The notes under the pieces were generated by a model that was not told the DNA's origin, made no database searches, and saw only the letters and a program-made list of their open reading frames with translations. Made by a program: the position numbers and the translations under genes. A stretch of 59,546 nt of DNA, the filler included, from Circinaria calcarea (lineage: Eukaryota), in the NCBI GenBank assembly GCA_051942165.1. It is 3 parts of 3 records of this genome, joined end to end, with 100 filler letters (N's around TTAATTAATTAA, not from the genome) between each part and the next. Parts side by side here need not be neighbours in the genome. Positions count along the whole stretch, not along the records: positions 19,892 to 39,680 come from JAVECS010000191.1; 2 more parts are not named here. The stretch is one strand, 5' to 3'. Shown in pieces: positions 14,506 through 25,849 of this stretch (positions are counted from its first letter, which is position 1; each line of letters starts with the position of its first letter).

Positions 14506-17500
14506 TCATCGAACGTAGGGGTATTGACCTGGAGCGAGATTAACATGTGCCGTATTGGTAGAGAAAACTTGCGTGCTGGTGAGCTGCCACTTCCTTCTCC
14601 TCACGCCTTGCAGCCCAGGCGTTGAGATCATCGGGTGAGACGGTCGACAGGAGGTTGACGTTCTGCAGAGCACTGGGGATTGGGGACAGGAACTTCCCCG
14701 GTCTGTCGTCATGGCAATGGCGAAGACCGAGGATTTCAGGGTCCTTGTGCGGGGAGTAAAGTGAATCACGCTTAGATCGACGCTTTCTGCGCCTGATGGT
14801 CATGGACGGACCATCACGATTTTCACGGCGTCTCAGGGTATCACGAGAAGAATCTCGGTGGGGAGAAGAAAATTCAATAGAGGTTGAAAATAAATGACGA
14901 TGCTCACCATTGTACTGGGTTGGCGCCATCTGCACCCCGTGCGGCATAGCAACTCCATTGCTTACCGGGGCCGGCTGGGCTCGAGGTTGATTCACTGAAT
15001 TCGGGATATGTGTATCTCGGATGAGCTTCACCATTTCCTCGGGCTTGAATCTCGTTGCATGATACGTGGACGCTTTCGGGATTATACTGAGAAGAAAGAG
15101 AACCTCCCGAGGAAGGGCCGGAGGCGGAAGCATGTAACTGTTATTCTGACCTTCGTGTTGCGATATCTCGTTTGGCAGTCGGCTGCGCTTTTGCTGATCC
15201 AGTCGACGCCCGGCTGCACCTTTAAGTGGCGACTCACCACGAACAAACTTCCGGGGGCGGAGGGCTTCGGTGTCAACTTCCTCGAACGGTAGTGGTCGCT
15301 TCGGTGAATTCGTAGGTTGAGCATGTTGATATGGCGGGGAATTCTGCGCCGAGGCCGTCTCGATAGTAGGCATCATTCTCGGGCGAGCTTGCGAGCTGGG
15401 CGAGATGATCAGGCGGATTGCGGTTGGATCGAAGCCTTCGTGGGTGAAGCGCTGGGAAAAGGACGAAAGTCTTGGATCTTCGGGAAACAGATCGCTCATG
15501 CGCTTCTCCAACTTCAGGATCTGATTAAGCTCTCCGTGTTGAGATTCGAAGGCGTGAAAGAAGGCGTACAGCGGCTTCGCTTTCTGAAGCGTCTCCGGTT
15601 TCTGAGACAATCGGCCCACTGTAGTTTCAAAGACCACTCTGGCATCTATCGAGTATATCAGACAACACCCATGTACGAACAAAGAGTTGCACTTACTGGT
15701 ATGGTCGTTGTTTGCAATTAGATGCCTGATGTACTCCAATGCAAAAGCCTCGTCCTCTGGATATAGTTTCGCTCCCCGCTCAAAGATTCTCTTCGCAGCT
15801 TCACCCTCATACATATGAAATTCCAACAGTGCAGCAGCAACCCAGACATCGCTTGTGATGCGGCCTCTCTTCCGAGCGTCGGTCAGAATCTGTCGAGAGC
15901 CACCTATGGGCGCTCCTACTTTGCCTTTACCCTGAATCCGTCGTATTGCACGCATCAACGCAATCCACGCGTGAGAGAGGGTTTTTTGGATTAGACGTAT
16001 CTGTAGGGCGTTCATATTTTTCACAACGTCGGTCTGCACCTTTTTCCTCTGCTCTGCCTTGTTAGTGTCGTCGTCCTCGGCGTCTCGATCGTTATCCTCG
16101 CCCTTCATTCCGTTCACGGGGTTGCTAGTAGCCTCAAGGAACTGAGATTCAATGCGAGCAAGATCCCGAGCTTCTCGGGCAGTAGTTTTGGCGATCAGCT
16201 CGTAGAGCGCATCAAGCACCTTATCGTATGGCTCTCGTACCGCCGCTCCTCTCCGTTTCACACCTTCATCGCCATCCTCGTTAGACGTGCAAAGCTCAAT
16301 TCGATCTGCACGCTTGAAAGCTAGCAAGCAGCTTTCTGGGTTGGCTGAGATGCCTTGATTGAGAAAATCAATGCCTTCAGATTCTAGATCATTATGAAAA
16401 CAAAATTCAGCGGCCTCGAACCACATTTCAGGCCAGAACCTCAGAGCCATCAATGCTTGTTTGTACACAAAAATAACCCTAGCTTTGTACGCGGCCAGAT
16501 CATCCTGCTTCAAGACAAGTGGGTCATCCTTCTCCCACTGTATCCAGCGCTTCCAAATCTCCACTTGCTTTGTGTATTCAACGTCACCATCAAACCCAAG
16601 CGCTGGGGGCAGAGTTGGGAGAGTAGTCCGTTTTAAATCCCGGGTGATATTCTGCAATTCTGTGTACGAGCTTCGAGCAGACATGTATGCGGGTGAGTGG
16701 TCCTGTAGGTATTTTCGACCCTTGAAGGGTGCATCAGCAGGGGAGGTGCTCGTCTAGAATGTGCGTACGTACCGTCACCTTGTTCAAGCCCATCTCGAAT
16801 TGGTTGAACTCCCTCCAGAGGGACTCGACCGATTGGGTAGGGACACATATTGCGGAATGATAAGCCTTTCGAAGAGAATCCATCTTCTGCGAGTCCTGCC
16901 AGTTACTACCTCCGACATTTCCCGGGCCTGATTTCACAAATTGCACGTAATCTTGCCAGATTCTCCCAGACTCCTTGTCATTGCCGATGTTCTGCAGTGC
17001 GAGCTCGTATGCTTTGTAGATCACTCCACGTGCAGTGCCAGACGTATCGGTTGTGATGTTGTAGTGGCGTCTGATGTGGTCGAGGTATGCAGACCAAAGC
17101 TGGACATTTGGTATTTGCATTAGGGTATTATTGAAAATAGTATCTACTGCATTCCGATTCTGAGCGTCATTTTCCATTTGGATATATGCCACCCATTGCT
17201 CTGCCTAGAACCATAATCAGTAAGGTTGGCGCTTTATAAACGGATAAGGACTTACTGCGGATGGAAAGATTCCGAAGAACCTTTCGTAGACTTTCCGAGC
17301 TTCGTCAAGCTTTCCGCGACGTTTATGTTCGTCAATCAGGGTAAGCCAAGCATCAAGATCTCCGCGTTCGTCTTCCTTGATCCTATCTTCCAAAAGACCT
17401 ATCTTATCGTGAGGTAGGCGTGCTTTAGGGGCGGCGGAGCTTGGTGATGGTGATTGTGATTGGTTAGCAACAGAACTTCGTCGTATTTGCTCCAACTTTA

Positions 17501-18137
17501 GAGTAGGAGGCGCATCTAGAGCCTTTGCGACGCCATCGCCACGGCTCGAAATCTCGCCAGGAGCTGATTCAGTGGCTATACTCGTAGCGATATCATTAGT
17601 TGATTTAGTCACATAATTTGGAGCAGTATTGCCTTGAGCAGCAGTGTGTACGGGCAGGTCCTGTGCAGCCATCTGTACAAGAGGATCGTATGAAGTCGGT
17701 GATTGAGGTGAGACAGCCCCGTTCTCATTTCTTAAGTGGAGCGCGCCGTTTGTCCCTTGGGGTGCGGCTGGTGGTGCTTCGGAGGAGCGGTCCTTTGTAA
17801 AGGATGCCATCATATCCTTCGAGTATGCAGGAGAGGATCTATCGTACTCAGACGCCGCGTTCACCCCGTTCACAGCAGGGCCCAAAGACCCCGGCTGCGC
17901 GGAAACAGGAGGAAAAACATCATTCTTGCTAACATCAACAGACGAGATAGGATTGGACGTTTGAGGGCCAGAAAGCAGAGTGATATCTTGCACATCTTGC
18001 GCAGGATCATATTCATCTGATGAGGAAGAATCTATCTGCTGTTCACTACCACCACCAGTAACATTGTAGCTCCCAGTATTCTCATTCATAGCCTGCATCG
18101 AACTAAGAAAAGCTGCCTCAGCCTCCGCTTCCGCCAT
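14506..18137 (-). CDS. RNA14: mRNA 3'-end processing factor Rna14 (CstF-77/Su(f) family, HAT repeats), multi-exon
   Basis: KARLPHDKIGLLEDRI, PNVQLWSAYLDHIRR, SGRIWQDYVQF, WIQWEKDDPL, YKQALMALRFWPEMW and SPLKGAAGRRL. Spliced stop at 14506; unspliced stop at 14540. Confidence 0.92.
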
Positions 18138-18679: not shown

Positions 18680-19717
18680 ATGAGTATCATCTCCCTTCTC
18701 GGGGTAAAGGTCTTGAACAACCCAGCAAACTTCAGTGATCCGTACGAGTTTGAGATCACATTCGAGTGCTTGGAGCAGCTGCACAAAGGTATACTACCTC
18801 CTCATTCCCAGGTTAGACTCCAACGCTCATTTCCTAATTTCAGATCTCGAATGGAAACTCACCTACGTTGGATCGGCGACTTCGTGAGCTGCTCCCTTCT
18901 GACGGACCACTCTTGCATTCTAACTCTACATCACAGGTCCGAACATGATCAAGAACTCGACTCTCTCTTAGTGGGCCCGATTCCGGTGGGCGTCAATAAA
19001 TTCATCTTCGAAGCAGACGCTCCGGACCTGAAGCGAATCCCCGCATCTGAGATTCTTGGTGTCACCGTCATACTCCTCACCTGCAGTTACGATTCCAGAG
19101 AGTTCGTGCGTGTAGGCTACTATGTCAACAATGAGTACGACAGCGAAGAACTCAATGCTGAACCGCCCGCAAAGCCAGTTATGGAGCACGTCCGAAGGAA
19201 CATTCTAGCCGAGAAACCACGAGTGACTCGTTTTGCCATTAAATGGCAAGTTTACAGCTTTATGTTTTTATACACTTGGATTTCTCGCTAACAGGATTCA
19301 AGGGACTCTGCTGATTCTGCCCCAGCCGAATATCCTCCTGAGCAACCAGAAGCTGACGTAGTAGAAGACGATGGTACAGCATATGGCGCAGAGGAAGTCG
19401 AGCTTGAAGAGGCACTCATCAAGGAGGAAGCCGCCCTCACAGCTCAAGGGGAGGATGAAGAAATGGCTGGCGCAGATGACACCGCGGGACAAGCAGCTAA
19501 AGCGGAGGATGACGAGTCTGATGCCGGTAGCGAAGACTTAGAAGCTGAGAGCAGCGGCAGTGAGGACGACGAGGTAGAAGAGGAAGAGGGCGAAGGTGAC
19601 GGGGATGAAGACATGGAGATGGCTGAAGACGGCGACGGAAAGCCAACAGAAGCAGCATCACACAATGGTCAGCCCATAGGCCAACAACAGCAGCATGGCG
19701 AGGTGATGGTTCACTGA
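18680..19717 (+). CDS. ASF1: Histone H3-H4 chaperone Asf1 with acidic tail, 4 exons
   Basis: [16 protein letters not shown]...[55 protein letters not shown], then a D/E-rich tail. Confidence 0.96.
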
Positions 19718-19791: not shown

Positions 19792-19891
19792 NNNNNNNNN
19801 NNNNNNNNNNNNNNNNNNNNNNNNNNNNNNNNNNNTTAATTAATTAANNNNNNNNNNNNNNNNNNNNNNNNNNNNNNNNNNNNNNNNNNNN
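19792..19891. other. Artificial contig linker (N44-TTAATTAATTAA-N44)
   Basis: 100-nt block with a 12-mer giving stops in all six frames; the same block occurs at 39681. Confidence 0.97.
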
Positions 19892-21289
19892 GTTTTGTTG
19901 ATGGATTTTACAAACGTTTTCGGCAACGAGCCATAGAATGTATACAACACTAGAGCAAACAGTCCTATCGGCGCAAATATCTGGAGAAATTCATACCAAT
20001 GAAATGCTTTGACTTCGGTTTCAATATGACCAGCTCCTCGTCTAGTTGTCCCGTCAGGCGCTTTTTCGACGCCCACATCAGCAGGAAAGCGTCCCGTTCG
20101 ATAATATAATTCTATAAGCTTATCCTTTTCTATCCAGCGTTGTCTGAGCCAATACTCAAAGGCCTCGGGATCGTCAATTGGAATAGCAGAGATTGCAAAG
20201 CGCCGCCAATACATATTGACTGATTTGGGAGGACGGCCTTCAAGGTACGATGCCTTGACGGTAAAGATGTCCTGGGCATATTCTCCGCGACTAATAAACA
20301 TTAGAAACATAGTACTGTAGATGAGATGGAGGGTGCGCCAGAATTAATAAGAGAAGGTACGTACGGTACGCCCTCGTAGGCAATAGTACAATCATATATG
20401 TAGTCTACTGTCTTGCGAAGTTCCTGGAGACAGAACTGTAGTCCAGTGCTTCGCGGTATCAGTTGATGGCGCATATCAGGAATCCCTTTTTTGGCAGCCC
20501 ATTTTCTTGACGAGTCACGTGTACTCGGAGCAAGATTGGTCCCTTCTGGAAACATCAACAACCACATTGGGTCGGAGGCTTTGTTGAGTGATTGCAGGTG
20601 GGCTGCCAAGTGCGGTTTGTCCTTTTCCCAGTTCCGTTTTAATAGAATGAACTGGGAGAACTGAATGCCCCAGCCAATGACGGGGATCCGTTTCAAGGAC
20701 TCCTTGAGGACAATGTAGATGCGGCCATGCATCCCGTTGGTATATGCTATCCACCATAGGTACAACCAGTCGGTATAGATCTGTGGTATATCAGTATGTT
20801 TTCCCCAAGGCCATGAGCGAAGAGTTACTTGATGGTTTGCGATCAGAATTGCTCTTTCTGAGAAATTGCATATAAGCCTTCCGTCCACTGTCTTCAGTAA
20901 CTGACCCCGGACGGTTTTGTCTCCGCTGATCCTCATGACCGTGGGCGCCCACCACTGGGTCATGGTCATGGTCAGGAGGCCAAACGATTGTTTGGTAAAG
21001 GCTATCCATGCATTGTACCAGTCCCTATTCACGAGATATAATGGAACACCGAGGAATTGCGACGCGTTGATGCTGCCAGCGTAAAGATGCCAGTCAGCAT
21101 ACTATACTACTACCCCAAAGTAGATAGGGGGTGGCCTCACGCCATGACACCAGATATAAAATAAGAACCCAAGGCGAGAAACGAAGAGATTTGCGAAGTT
21201 GGGCCATGCTGAACTGGTCTTGCGACAGGATACGGCTGTTTGGCGGTCAGGGACAGTCCAGCGCCCAGATCTGCCTTGGATTTGGTCAT
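19892..21289 (-). CDS. PlsC-family lysophospholipid acyltransferase (Cst26/LCLAT-like), 3' end lost in gap
   Basis: Spliced NHQIYTDWLYLW (HX4D motif), VLKESLKRIP, FPEGT, PRSTGL and YDCTIAYEG; probable ATG at 21289. Confidence 0.88.
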
Positions 21290-21944
21290 GGAGTGTGATT
21301 CTGATATCCAAAGAATAGAAAAGAAATTTCTCAATTACACATTATCATTGCAGAACTAGGTAGATTGGAGAGAAAAATGGATTTTACTGTATTCTATAAT
21401 CATGCCGGAGTAAACACCGAAAAGCCTTCGACTTAGGGAGTGTGCAAATGCAAGTAAGTGATATGCGCGACGTGAATGACGTCAGCCAATCGAATCACAC
21501 GCCTCCCCTACCGAATGCCGGGGATCAAACGGCCCAGACGTGGCTCAATGTCATACCAAAAGGCCGATCTGTGGCGTCAAGTCGATGTGATTCCTTGCTT
21601 CCGGCCGAAAGAGACCCTGCCCATCGTCATTGTGCCTCGAGGACAGAATCTTCTAGGCCTTTCACCTCCCTCTTCCCACACACGCGAGCGAATGACCAGT
21701 TGTCCACACAGGTTACGCAGTATTTCCTGACCTACGGAAGTACTGTTGATGGTGAGTTGTGACGAGCGGAAAAGAAAGAGCAGACGAATACAAAAATATT
21801 ACCATGGTCCATCGCGTTATAGCCTGCATCTGCATCGGATTTACTCCGAACCAGAACATCAATTGGTTCCTTTGTATGTATCGTGATCGCGCTCCTTAAT
21901 TGGCTATGATCTGCAGCGGCTCCAATGCTCAGATCAAGGTCTTG

Positions 21945-21966
21945 CCCCTATGACGTCAAAGCCCCT
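21945..21966 (+). promoter_or_regulatory. STRE-CRE-STRE cluster (CCCCT / TGACGTCA / CCCCT)
   Basis: CCCCT 21945-21949, palindromic TGACGTCA 21951-21958, CCCCT 21962-21966; ~150 bp upstream of ORF 22109. Confidence 0.55.
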
Positions 21967-22108
21967 ATCCCCAGATGCCCAGCCACTGACAGCACATATA
22001 TGCTTTCCGTCGGACAGTCCCTCGAATTTTTTATTCCATCACCGTTCGACTTTGAATAACAGAACCATCCATCAAACTTAATGTCATCGAGTCCCCAACA
22101 CCTTTCAA

Positions 22109-22456
22109 ATGCCTAACTATCTCTCCTTTGACTTCTTCTTCGACCAAGACAAATTCAACTTCACCGCTTCCCGATCCCAGGGTGCACCACCCATCAAGCC
22201 AGCGTGGAAAGTCAGGACCGCACCTAAGCTTCCCCCCAAGGAACTTTCCCAATCCGACTCCACCTCCAGTCCCCGTATCACCGAAATCCCATCCGACAAG
22301 AAGGTTCCCAAGCTCGCTCCCAAATCAAAAGCTACTCCCAAACCCAAGGAGACCGCTAAACCCAAGGAGACTCCCAAACCCAAGGAGACTGCCAAACCTA
22401 AAGAAGCATCCAAGCCAGACGCGTCCACAACTACCAAAGCCGCACCAAAAGCCTAA
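22109..22456 (+). CDS. Hypothetical 115-aa protein: Phe-rich head and PKET(A/P)K repeats
   Basis: Intact ATG-TAA ORF with C-ending codon bias and an in-frame 18-nt repeat. Confidence 0.55.
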   Translation: MPNYLSFDFFFDQDKFNFTASRSQGAPPIKPAWKVRTAPKLPPKELSQSDSTSSPRITEIPSDKKVPKLAPKSKATPKPKETAKPKETPKPKETAKPKEASKPDASTTTKAAPKA

Positions 22457-22471
22457 ATCAAAACCTCCACG

Positions 22472-23191
22472 ATGGCTTCGAGTTGGATCGCCAGCACAAT
22501 TGGCAACACCGTTTCCAGCGCCGTCGCACCCACCATCTCCAGCTACGTCGCCACCGCGGGCTCCTTTGCCGGTGATACCGTCGCCAGCGTCGGTGACGCC
22601 ATCAACGGTGTTGGCCAAAGTGTCGGCGGCACAATATCCCGATATGGCAATGGTGCCAAAGACTACGCCAACGCAATCAAGGATTACACCAAGGCACCCG
22701 GAACTCGAACCACAAGCGCCAAGAATCCTTTGGGGCTAAGCGATACCTACACCGGAGGCAAACACTCCCTCAACTCCAGTGCCTTCTCCAACCCCCTAGC
22801 CGGCATGAAAGCTGCCCCCAAAGCAATCGAAGCTCCCAAGCCCGCAGCTAAGAAACCTGCCCCTGCACATGCAAAGTCCCCGGCTCCTTCGCGTGCTAAA
22901 TCCCCAGCTCCTGCCGTCAAGCCCAAAACCCCAGCCGCCTCCGGTAGACGAAGTGCCACACCCGCCAACATTGCCAAACCACTTTCACCTACAGCGTCCA
23001 AGCCAAAAGATGTCGGTGCGGCAGCGAAAGGCGGAACACAGAAAGCCGCGGATCCGAATCATCTGAGGGCTATTGCTGCAAAAGCGAGAGAAAGGTCCGC
23101 GGGTGCATATGGCGGCGCGCCGAAGCCAAAACCGGTGGCAAAGACTCCTACTAATGCTACTGCCAAAAATCCTTTGGGATTGTCATTTTGA
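22472..23191 (+). CDS. Hypothetical 239-aa Ala/Pro/Lys-rich protein with duplicated AKNPLGLS motif
   Basis: Intact ORF with strong start context (acgATGg); G/A/V/S-rich N-terminal half; motif present mid-protein and at the C-terminus. Confidence 0.75.
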   Translation: MASSWIASTIGNTVSSAVAPTISSYVATAGSFAGDTVASVGDAINGVGQSVGGTISRYGNGAKDYANAIKDYTKAPGTRTTSAKNPLGLSDTYTGGKHSLNSSAFSNPLAGMKAAPKAIEAPKPAAKKPAPAHAKSPAPSRAKSPAPAVKPKTPAASGRRSATPANIAKPLSPTASKPKDVGAAAKGGTQKAADPNHLRAIAAKARERSAGAYGGAPKPKPVAKTPTNATAKNPLGLSF

Positions 23192-23883
23192 ATTTATTGT
23201 GTCTGCAGGCTGAAGAATGTGGTACGAGGAAGGCATTGATGCGTCAACTTGTGTTTTTGGTTCCAACCTATTCTTTTATGTACAACGTACAGTCGACCGA
23301 TTAGCCTGCCTATGTTTTAGTCACGAAGAGTCATCTGCATTTTCTCCTCGAAAAGTTTATCCGTACGTTAGTTTCAGATATTTACATTGAATTCAAACCT
23401 TCGATGAGCCTTTAAAGTAGAGCATCCACGTCACTATTAACAAAATTTCATCTCCGTCTAAATCTCCTCAAATATCTTTTATCTCCCACAAAGCAACTTA
23501 CTTCCACGCCCCCTTACATCCCTTTTAAAAATTCACATGATGATGCTTGATACTTATTCTAACCATGACCATGACCAACCTACGATATCCTTCCCATACC
23601 CATTCCAATTTCCCATTTTCCCACCATCACTCGAGTCCTCGAGTCCTCGAAGGGGATGCACGTACGATCTAGAAAGCAATGTTGACAATCTAACTTAACG
23701 TACCCCAAATTACCCTTACATTACTAAAAGTGAAAAAGGTGCATGTAGAGAGTGTCACTGTACCGCACCCCCAAGTGCCACACCCCAAGAAACTTGAACA
23801 CCCACTCTAAACCGACCTCCCCCTCCCCGAATTTCCACGCATTCCGCCCCAAATCTCCCTCCCCCACAAACGAGCCTACAGCA

Positions 23884-24016
23884 TCAGCGTCAGCGTCAGC
23901 GTCAGCACTCAGCGTCAGCATCCCTATCCCTATTGTTATTGTTATTTCTAACCTCCTCCTCCAGCTCAATCCTAGTTCACACACCCAGCTCACACACCAG
24001 CTCACACCAGCTCACC
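23884..24016 (+). repeat. Low-complexity short tandem repeats (TCAGCG)n and (CACACCAGCT)n between convergent genes
   Basis: Read directly at 23884-23919 and ~23978-24016. Confidence 0.75.
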
Positions 24017-24286
24017 ACAACAGTTCACCTCGCCGCGGAGTGCGGTACGGAGTGCGGACGAGTGCTCTTGCCAATCCTTCAAAATACACCATCCTTCACA
24101 AGTCCCTCGAACCCAGCTCTTCCGGATTTTTCTTAGCGGGGTTTTTTATAGCCTGTTTTCTTAGTTGTATCCGGGATATAACGAAATAGACGGACGGGGG
24201 TTTAGAAAGACTCCAAGGAAAGGAGTTTTTTTTTTCAAGAAGTTGGAGCTGAAAGTTTTTTTTTTAAAAATTTTTGGTTCAAACAG

Positions 24287-25849
24287 CTATCTGACTCCGG
24301 CCCCAAACTGCTTGTTAAACGCCCTCCCGATTACAATCCGCCTCACCTCGCTTGTACCCGCCCCAATCTCGTACAACTTCGCATCCCTGAGTAACCTCCC
24401 CGCCGGCACCTCGTTCACGTAGCCCATGCCTCCCATCAACTGGATCGCGTCCAGGGCGCACTCGGTGGCTCTTTCCGCCGCGTACAGGATACAGCCGGCG
24501 CAGTCTTCGGTTTGGATGGCACCGGCCTCGTCGACGGATTGGGCGGTGCGGTACGTGTACGAGCGAGACGCTTGCATCTTGGTGTACATGTCGGCGAGTT
24601 TGGCTTGGATGAGCTGGGTGTGAGCGATAGGGGTGGAGAATTGGGTGCGGGTGTGGGTGTAAGGGAGAACGAGGTCGAGGGCGGCTTGCATTATTCTGCA
24701 GGGAGGAACAGGGGTTTTAGATATTTCGGAAATGAGGAACATAGGGGGGGTTCTTACCCCAGTGGTCCGGCGCTGAGGACTAATCTTTCGATATCGAGTC
24801 CTTCCATCAGAACCCGGACCCCGCGATTGAGTTCCCCGAGGAGATTCTCGCGAGGGACGAAAACGTTGTCGAAGATTAGTTCTCCGGTATTGGAGCCGCG
24901 CATGCCGAGTTTGTCTAGCTTTCGGGCAACTGAGAATCCGGAGGCTGAGCTGTCCACGACAAACGCTGTGATACCCTTTGATGCTTTCTCTGGCTCCGTC
25001 TTTGCATAGACGATGATGTGATGAGCGTCGGGTCCCTGGTATTGATCAATCCTACCGTTGACATGAATGCGAGATCACAAGTAATCCTACATTGGTAATC
25101 CACATCTTTGTACCATTCAGCACCCAGCCACCGTCCACGGCTTTGGCAGTAGTCTTCATACTCACGACATCCGAACCCGCAGAATGTTCAGACATGGCGA
25201 GTGCACCAATCTTTTCTCCCGAAATCAGCCCCGGGAGGAAGCGCTCTTTCTGTTCCCGGGTCCCGTTCAGAGAGAGCTGATTGATGCAGAGCTGCGAATG
25301 GGCGGCGTAAGATAGACCAATGCTACCTGAATATATCAGCCCGTCTTCACCATATGTTAGAACTCGAGTTTTCAGCACACATACCTGACGATCTACTGAT
25401 TTCCTCCATAACAATGCAATGGGCTTGATATCCCATGGCCAAGCCACCGTAATCCTCCTCGGCTGTGATACCAAGGAACCTCCAACCTAGTCAGAGGAGG
25501 TTGTACATTTTATGCACAGAGGGGACTAACCCAGCTTCCCCAAGCTTTCTCCACATATCTGAAGGAAACTCATTCTCGCGGTCTGTTTTGGCAGCAACAT
25601 GTTCGGGGATCTCACGCCCTATTTTGTCTATTAGTGGTGAATCCTCGCTGATCCTAACATTTCCTGCCTACTTGTAAACTCTTGTACCCGTTCCCTCAGC
25701 TCCAACAGGTCCTCGCTTGACGGGGCTACGAAGCCCTTGGGATGCTTCGTGGACGCTGCGCACTTGGCAACCAATGGATATCTTGGCCTGGACCGTCCGA
25801 TCTGACGGATTGCGTTGCTGAACGCTCTATGTACAATGGAGGCTGACAT
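24287..25849 (-). CDS. ivdA: Mitochondrial isovaleryl-CoA dehydrogenase, multi-exon
   Basis: Arg-rich presequence; [60 protein letters not shown] and [17 protein letters not shown]. Confidence 0.92.

Follow-up and report, generated by a model that had tools for sequence, protein, structure and literature searches.

In a 59,546-nt stretch of DNA from Circinaria calcarea (GenBank assembly GCA_051942165.1; this whole stretch is hereafter the window), two open reading frames (ORFs) lie in close tandem on the + strand, and comparison with related loci indicates that the pair is real and deeply conserved. ORF1 (22109..22456, 115 aa) and ORF2 (22472..23191, 239 aa) are separated by a spacer of 15 nt (22457..22471), and we consider it probable that they are carried on a single, probably stress-regulated mRNA that is translated by leaky scanning. 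The linkage, the start contexts, the loss of AUG triplets, the coding selection on both ORFs and an upstream motif can be read directly from the compared sequences. A sequence-only reading had already placed the two ORFs at these positions, in a common frame and separated by TAA and 15 nt, with no consensus splice donor near the ORF1 stop and no ATG in any frame from 22109 to 22472, and re-reading of the window bears this out. Its suggestion that the pair yields two proteins by leaky scanning gains support from the conserved order, the spacer, the weak first and strong second ATG, the AUG loss and the selection on ORF1, with the single transcript and the scanning step themselves still inferred. 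The locus has no introns and is about 1.1 kb long, each ORF has a single match in its own genome with no paralogues, and a relative's contig of 1,553 nt spans 21901-23361 without joints, with differences read up to 22430.

Conserved linkage of the two ORFs

A metagenome scan seeded with ORF1 returned at least 18 loci (L001-L018) from at least 568 pattern matches, and all locus counts given here are among the matches listed. L018, with no ATG and a score of 17 bits, was discarded as a false match, L017, which ends inside ORF1, was left out of the linkage counts, and L016, whose start lies off the contig, was left out of the ATG1 context. ORF2 directly follows ORF1 in all 16 informative related loci, in 15 by hidden Markov model and in L003 by a visible start at the contig end, and by ORF2 identity the window and its relatives form seven lineages. 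The spacer measures 12 nt in six of these loci, -1 nt (a TAATG overlap) in four loci of one clade, 2, 2 and 3 nt in three more, and 23, 29 and 77 nt in the rest, the longest being that of L015. The ORFs share a frame in seven of the 16 loci and are out of frame in nine, with even the close relatives L012 and L014 differing, and the ORF1 stop is TAA in 13 loci, as in the window, and TAG in three. The divergent upstream neighbour of the window is common to six of nine longer loci tested, and these are therefore orthologous sites. Indirect support for linkage comes from five further ORF1/ORF2 protein pairs with contigs equal in size (1,679, 5,308, 8,917, 20,527 and 63,681 nt). Six short contigs, not known to be RNA, begin 52-114 nt 5' of ATG1 and end 100-619 nt past the ORF2 stop, and hint at the shape expected of a two-ORF transcript.

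Two smaller features of the junctions were recorded. Counted from ORF1, the ORF2 of L001-L016 lies in frame 0 or in frame +2 and never in +1, which may be chance given seven lineages. At 936-950 of L002 the first six ORF2 residues are lost, and the start is the clade's second Met, in strong context and still 12 nt past the stop.

The variable frame bears on a further suggestion of the sequence-only reading, that the pair makes a single fusion protein by readthrough or adenosine-to-inosine (A-to-I) editing, to which splicing, a strain-specific stop and a sequencing error can be added. The common frame in the window and in seven loci would allow a fusion, and four NCBI gene models (P0024, P0072, P0073 and P0076) unite both domains. 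However, every informative locus keeps the ORF1 stop and none encodes an uninterrupted orthologue, and with the frame broken in nine of 16 we reject a strain-specific stop, readthrough and A-to-I editing as the rule. The entry point into ORF2 differs in each of the four fused models (profile positions 3, 18, 24 and 42) and three of them drop conserved ORF2 residues, as predicted introns would give, and four fused products stand against 71 standalone ORF1 products. A single chain or an accidental stop is, in our judgement, barely credible, and across the loci compared the shared frame is local to the strain or clade. An intron joining the ORFs or removing ATG1 was likewise rejected, as neither a donor nor a branch-acceptor set is conserved across the 16 loci.

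Start contexts and loss of AUG triplets

The start of ORF1 is weak in the window (TTTCAA-ATG-C, with C at -3 and C at +4) and that of ORF2 is strong (TCCACG-ATG-G, with A at -3 and G at +4), and what had been noted from one sequence holds across loci. At ATG1, position -3 is C in 16 of 17 loci and position +4 is C in every one, and ATG2 combines a purine at -3 with G at +4 in all 17. In the available part of a study of fungal starts (PMC7049704), efficient starts in Cryptococcus are marked by a purine at -3 and weak AUGs in Neurospora are bypassed by leaky scanning. The own-genome background for start context consists of the first ATGs of long frames, 21 starts of which many are probably internal exons.

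The upstream ORF (uORF) that had been described as overlapping the start of ORF1 is present (22081..22116, + strand, 11 codons, weak context TTA-ATG-T) and ends at the TAA inside ATG-CCT-AAC, but it is not conserved among relatives and, as far as these loci go, is local to the strain or clade. An upstream ATG within 50 nt 5' of ATG1 occurs in one of 16 related loci (L003). The idea of a uORF, or of an upstream peptide, that is conserved and stops at the TAA of ATG-CCT-AAC was rejected, the translations being unlike, and a conserved RNA structure around ATG1 was rejected at a consensus energy of -1.48 kcal/mol. ORF1 codons 2-3 (22112-22117) read CCT AAC in 15 of 17 loci (including L002-L014 and L017), which creates an other-frame TAA at +5; this TAA would end any upstream-initiated frame just past ATG1, and the site also resembles a branch-point word.

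The strong signal of AUG loss stems, on the counts below, from the homologues and not from the window alone. The ATG-free stretch of the window stays free of ATG in 70% of synonymous-codon shuffles and in 30% of simulations using ORF2 codon usage, and is barely beyond chance because the ORF1 protein is rich in proline, lysine and alanine (P/K/A-rich); a gap of this size is still unusual for the genome, where only 2 of 241 non-overlapping 360-nt windows cut from long open frames lack an ATG (260 kb sampled). Among the 71 ORF1 homologues, not one of 8,390 residues is an internal Met (5,707 in the first set and 2,683 in the profile set), and the frequency of Met in the similarly low-complexity ORF2 tails (34 of 3,161) would lead one to expect about 41 among the ORF1 tails in the 5,707-residue set. 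The other frames tell the same story at xAT|G joints, where an Asp, Asn, His or Tyr codon ending in T would stand before G: such joints number 1 of 66 in ORF1, 91 of 155 in ORF2 and 869 of 1,532 in the genome background, and with a single locus per lineage 0 of 21 in ORF1 and 42 of 75 in ORF2 (p=7e-7). Other T-ending codons before G are not avoided in ORF1 (98 of 182), and the avoidance is therefore specific to AUG. It holds more than 150 nt from the ORF1 stop (0 of 44 joints) and begins at codon 3, which is AAC in 12 of 12, and in these alignments the depletion spans the whole of ORF1. The 16 loci together have one ATG between the two starts, against 4-12 in each ORF2. Synonymous divergence (dS) in the ORF1 head is below that of the ORF2 core in most pairs (e.g., 0.38 and 1.97), partly because of AUG avoidance (AAC, GAC and TAC before G), which explains only part of it; codon 6, for instance, is TTT in 11 of 12 although the remaining Phe codons prefer TTC.

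The extent of the purge and the weak first start also bear on termination-reinitiation, in which the small subunit would restart at the nearby ATG2 after translation of ORF1. The distance from stop to restart would suit such a process in part of the loci, with a spacer of at most 29 nt in 15 of 16 related loci (an overlap in 4, 2-3 nt in 3 and 12-77 nt in 9), and UAAUG is described in the accessible text of PMC5972666 as the classic stop-restart arrangement. However, UGGGA, the core of a termination upstream ribosome-binding site (TURBS), is found in none of the 16 loci in the last 120 nt of ORF1, the spacer of L015 is 77 nt long, and reinitiation is presumed to be very rare after long ORFs. 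A green-algal study, in the part available (PMC11892635), reasons that reinitiation would purge AUGs near the stop only and would favour a strong first start, whereas ATG1 is weak and the purge here is ORF-wide. We regard reinitiation at ATG2 as quite unlikely.

Two transcript classes would explain the same purge without leakiness, a long mRNA giving protein 1 and a shorter one, starting just 3' of ATG1 and using ORF1 as an AUG-free leader, giving protein 2. This arrangement, which strikes us as unlikely, would also suit the lineages in which ATG1 has a purine at -3; the low dS of the ORF1 head could hide promoter elements, and seven of 16 loci have TGACGT within the head, at +17 or +46. It leaves unexplained, however, why position -3 is C in 16 of 17 loci, and a purge reaching codon 3 means that the second transcription start would need to sit within a few bases of ATG1. 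The low dS is in part accounted for by AUG avoidance, and the internal TGACGT derives from Phe-Asp-Val or Asp-Val codons and is missing from the ORF1 head of the window. The six short contigs, for what contigs not known to be RNA can tell, start 52-114 nt 5' of ATG1 and pass the ORF2 stop.

Two separately conserved proteins

The sequence-only reading turned on whether ORF1 is itself conserved, and it is, separately from ORF2 and with its head, the gene order and the short spacer retained. Protein searches returned 45 homologues of ORF1 and 25 of ORF2, a dedicated search added seven longer forms of the ORF1 head, and an ORF1 profile search gave 144 representatives of which 22 are new ORF1 sequences. 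The named carriers of ORF1 include the lichen fungi Xylographa, Lignoscripta, Ptychographa, Loxospora, Lambiella and Thelotrema and the black fungi Exophiala and Lithohypha; Xylographa and Thelotrema belong to the Lecanoromycetes and Lithohypha to the Chaetothyriales (Eurotiomycetes). The ratio of nonsynonymous to synonymous divergence (dN/dS) is 0-0.28 in 14 pairs for the ORF1 head and 0-0.23 for the ORF2 core, which by this measure places the head under purifying selection and both ORFs under coding selection. Neither protein matches any Pfam family at E up to 1 and Rfam gave no match; in the Atlas there was no usable match for ORF1, and ORF2 resembles Ascomycota clusters, all scoring <0.9.

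ORF1 consists of a 45-residue head (22109..22246, + strand), conserved in the alignment, and a basic P/K/A-rich tail that varies in length and sequence, the whole measuring 93-122 aa in the loci and up to about 180 aa among the proteins. The head carries a PxWKVRxAPKLPPK motif after a predicted beta-hairpin (residues 5-12 and 15-22), and the low-confidence AlphaFold2 model shows the hairpin and an unstructured tail (mean predicted local distance difference test (pLDDT) 66.5, predicted template modelling score 0.19), with no match among the solved structures of the PDB in Foldseek. ORF2 is modelled, also at low confidence (mean pLDDT 56.9), as a long helix (about residues 3-73) followed by a basic unstructured tail, and has an NPLGL motif at 85-89 that recurs at the C-terminus. 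Its predicted helix is amphipathic, with the best hydrophobic moment at 97-99 degrees in all 16 loci, and both chains are strongly basic. These protein features, together with the promoter motif described below and the way of life of the hosts, would be consistent with a role of both proteins in stress or desiccation protection, and the helix could possibly hold protein 2 at a membrane or lipid surface. Presumably this is also where a resemblance to late embryogenesis abundant (LEA), dehydrin or perilipin proteins lies, in the disordered low-complexity chain, the amphipathic helix of about 98 degrees and the upstream motif; unlike those families, both chains are strongly basic, and no family profile matches.

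The helix domain of ORF2 has distant relatives in Diplodia, Zasmidium and Penicillium. Seven members of this distant family (P0129, P0142, P0152, P0160, P0165, P0179 and P0189) have a P/K/A-rich N-terminal extension in frame with the helix domain and no ORF1 head, and may represent an ancestral or parallel one-chain form.

The distribution of conservation along ORF1 speaks to the idea that it is mainly a long conserved-peptide uORF regulating ORF2 in cis, with stalled ribosomes blocking scanning as in the yeast CPA1 leader peptide. Peptides that stall ribosomes tend to be short, with their conservation close to the stop. In ORF1 it is the N-terminal part that is conserved and the tail that varies, and the predicted beta-hairpin would rather suggest a binding surface. 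Pro-Pro and basic motifs in the head are what a cis-acting peptide might contain, and the YOR302W-CPA1 layout pairs a weak start with leaky scanning (PMC8573964, in its available text). We judge a mainly cis-regulatory ORF1 to be very unlikely.

A stress-type motif upstream of ORF1

Upstream of ORF1 the window contains two palindromes of the cAMP response element (CRE) type, neither assigned to a strand. The proximal one (TGACGTCA, 21951..21958) lies within ATGACGTCA and is a candidate Atf1/AtfA-type site of a putative single shared promoter; the distal one (TGACGTCA, 21477..21484) is 632 nt 5' of ATG1, with a comparable TGACGT at -603 in L011 and -586 in L014. The window carries the complete ATGACGTCA, which is given as the Aspergillus nidulans AtfA motif in the accessible text of PMC12731236. 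Of the 11 loci whose upstream sequence reaches 200 nt or more, 10 have TGACGT 142-226 nt 5' of ATG1, against 90 of 1,277 background windows, and it is the sole 6-mer common to five lineage representatives. The motif was noticed post hoc, and the control was therefore any 6-mer shared by five random windows, which occurred in 15 of 5,000 draws. The promoter thus has the CRE motif that membership of an Atf1/AtfA regulon would need, and binding of such a factor would follow only by analogy.

Signs of separate gene ends between the ORFs are scarce. A 3'-end element of the TATGTA type is absent in the window from the ORF1 stop to 150 nt into ORF2, a poly(A)-like word between the ORF1 stop and 150 nt past ATG2 occurs in one of 16 loci, and a TATA-like word inside ORF1 in one of 16. 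Pattern matches alone give a TATA-like CATATA at 21995..22000 (+ strand), 114 nt 5' of ATG1, and TATGTA, a candidate 3'-end element, at 23277..23282 (+ strand), 3' of ORF2. A short inverted repeat about 135-90 nt 5' of ATG1 is kept within a clade (ATATGGCGAA ... TTCGCCATAT in L002 and L004; less perfect in L006, L010 and L017).

Probable leaky scanning on a shared mRNA

Under leaky scanning, a single promoter 5' of ORF1 with a CRE of the Atf1/AtfA stress type would give one mRNA of about 1.2-1.4 kb holding both ORFs. Protein 1 would come from those scanning ribosomes that initiate at the weak ATG1. The remainder would bypass it, traverse some 310-410 nt kept clear of AUG in each of the three frames and begin protein 2 at the strong ATG2, with the weakness of ATG1 determining the ratio of the two proteins.

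Several observations weigh against this reading. Spacers are very short in most lineages and four of 16 loci, all of one clade, have the TAATG overlap, neither of which leaky scanning needs. With about 0.9 kb beyond its stop, ORF1 should invite nonsense-mediated decay. Single loci depart from the pattern: L006 carries the one internal ATG in ORF1, L015 has G at -3 of ATG1 and L002 is without the proximal CRE. Thirteen gene models extend ORF1 N-terminally in frame, of which nine imply C at -3 and four a purine (an Ile or Ala codon before Met). In Thelotrema, the model P0072 unites ORF1 with the whole of ORF2, which might be a genuine local fusion. Finally, the scan used ORF1 as its only seed, so that copies of ORF2 without ORF1 were invisible to it.

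Comparison with known systems

Leaky-scanning bicistrons are established in green algae, as reported in the available part of PMC11892635, and the REX1S-REX1B, TOM22 and OST4 loci described there resemble the fungal pair in their conserved tandem ORFs, short spacer, free frame and weak, AUG-poor ORF1. By its conserved ORFs, order, spacing, start contexts and AUG depletion, the locus has the sequence attributes of the algal bicistrons. The algal cases have long-read and reporter proof, whereas the present locus, from another kingdom, is known from sequence alone; both of its proteins belong to no known family and its AUG purge is nearly complete.

Polycistronic mRNAs reported from fungi are, in the available texts (bioRxiv 2021.11.08.467853; PMC8573964; PMC4471562), either read-through transcripts or secondary-metabolism loci without a stated scanning mechanism. 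The glpks3-glnrps7 dicistron of Glarea lozoyensis (PMC4471562) is likewise from Pezizomycotina, with two proteins per mRNA and a 26-bp spacer without poly(A) signal, but it is a secondary-metabolism locus with a 9-kb ORF1, which would make leaky scanning across the whole ORF implausible there, and the accessible text of the paper does not contain the words 'leaky' or 'reinitiation'. Read-through polycistronic transcripts of Fusarium graminearum, agarics and yeast (bioRxiv 2021.11.08.467853; PMC8573964) similarly place one transcript over two same-strand ORFs, but as described in the parts available they cover genes that are transcribed independently, and those of yeast tend to be of recent origin, whereas the present locus leaves no room for separate gene ends and is shaped in sequence for ORF2 translation in two fungal classes.

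The leaky AUGs of Cryptococcus and Neurospora (PMC7049704, in part) and the CPA1 leader peptide share the skipping of a weak first AUG for a strong second one, but give N-terminal isoforms or short regulatory peptides, in contrast to two conserved proteins of more than 90 aa. The UAAUG stop-restart systems of the hypovirus CHV1, influenza B, caliciviruses and SART1 (PMC5972666, in part) are matched by the TAATG overlap of one clade, whereas the locus lacks the TURBS core, does not conserve the overlap and has a weak first start.

The literature search found no account of this locus, nor of a conserved leaky-scanning bicistron with two full proteins in filamentous ascomycetes; subscription papers were mostly outside its reach, the proteins have no searchable names and supplementary tables were not covered. 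A two-protein mRNA on which some ribosomes would skip the first gene is an arrangement seldom met in fungi, and here the full sequence signature extends across two fungal classes with almost complete AUG loss. The pair adds two uncharacterised protein families linked to a stress-type promoter motif, exposes a recurring annotation error in gene models and offers a compact natural cassette for two-gene co-expression in filamentous fungi. As it is intronless, about 1.1 kb long and present in culturable black yeasts (Exophiala), the mechanism is directly testable. A wider proposal, which we offer tentatively and think may well prove wrong, is that the pair has been an obligate fungal bicistron since the split of Lecanoromycetes and Chaetothyriales, that the stringency of start-codon choice sets or adjusts the ratio between two new stress proteins of lichen-forming and rock-dwelling fungi, and that gene finders hide the bicistron by fusing it through invented introns or by dropping ORF1, in which case it could be the first representative of a broader class of fungal bicistrons, to be found as Met-free conserved ORFs immediately 5' of genes.

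Flanking features of the window

From their translations we take the neighbours of the pair to be an RNA14-like gene (17217-18137, - strand), an ASF1-like gene (18680-19717, + strand), an acyltransferase-like gene (19840-20969, - strand) and an isovaleryl-CoA dehydrogenase-like gene (24287-25849, - strand). The acyltransferase-like gene is syntenic in six loci. Pairs of 44-base N-runs with 12 bases between them (19792-19835/19848-19891 and 39681-39724/39737-39780) mark the joins of the window, and the ORF pair is clear of them. The longest ATG-free stretch of the + strand (683 nt, 23743-24426) lies 3' of ORF2 and is C/A-rich, with short tandem repeats and T-tracts.
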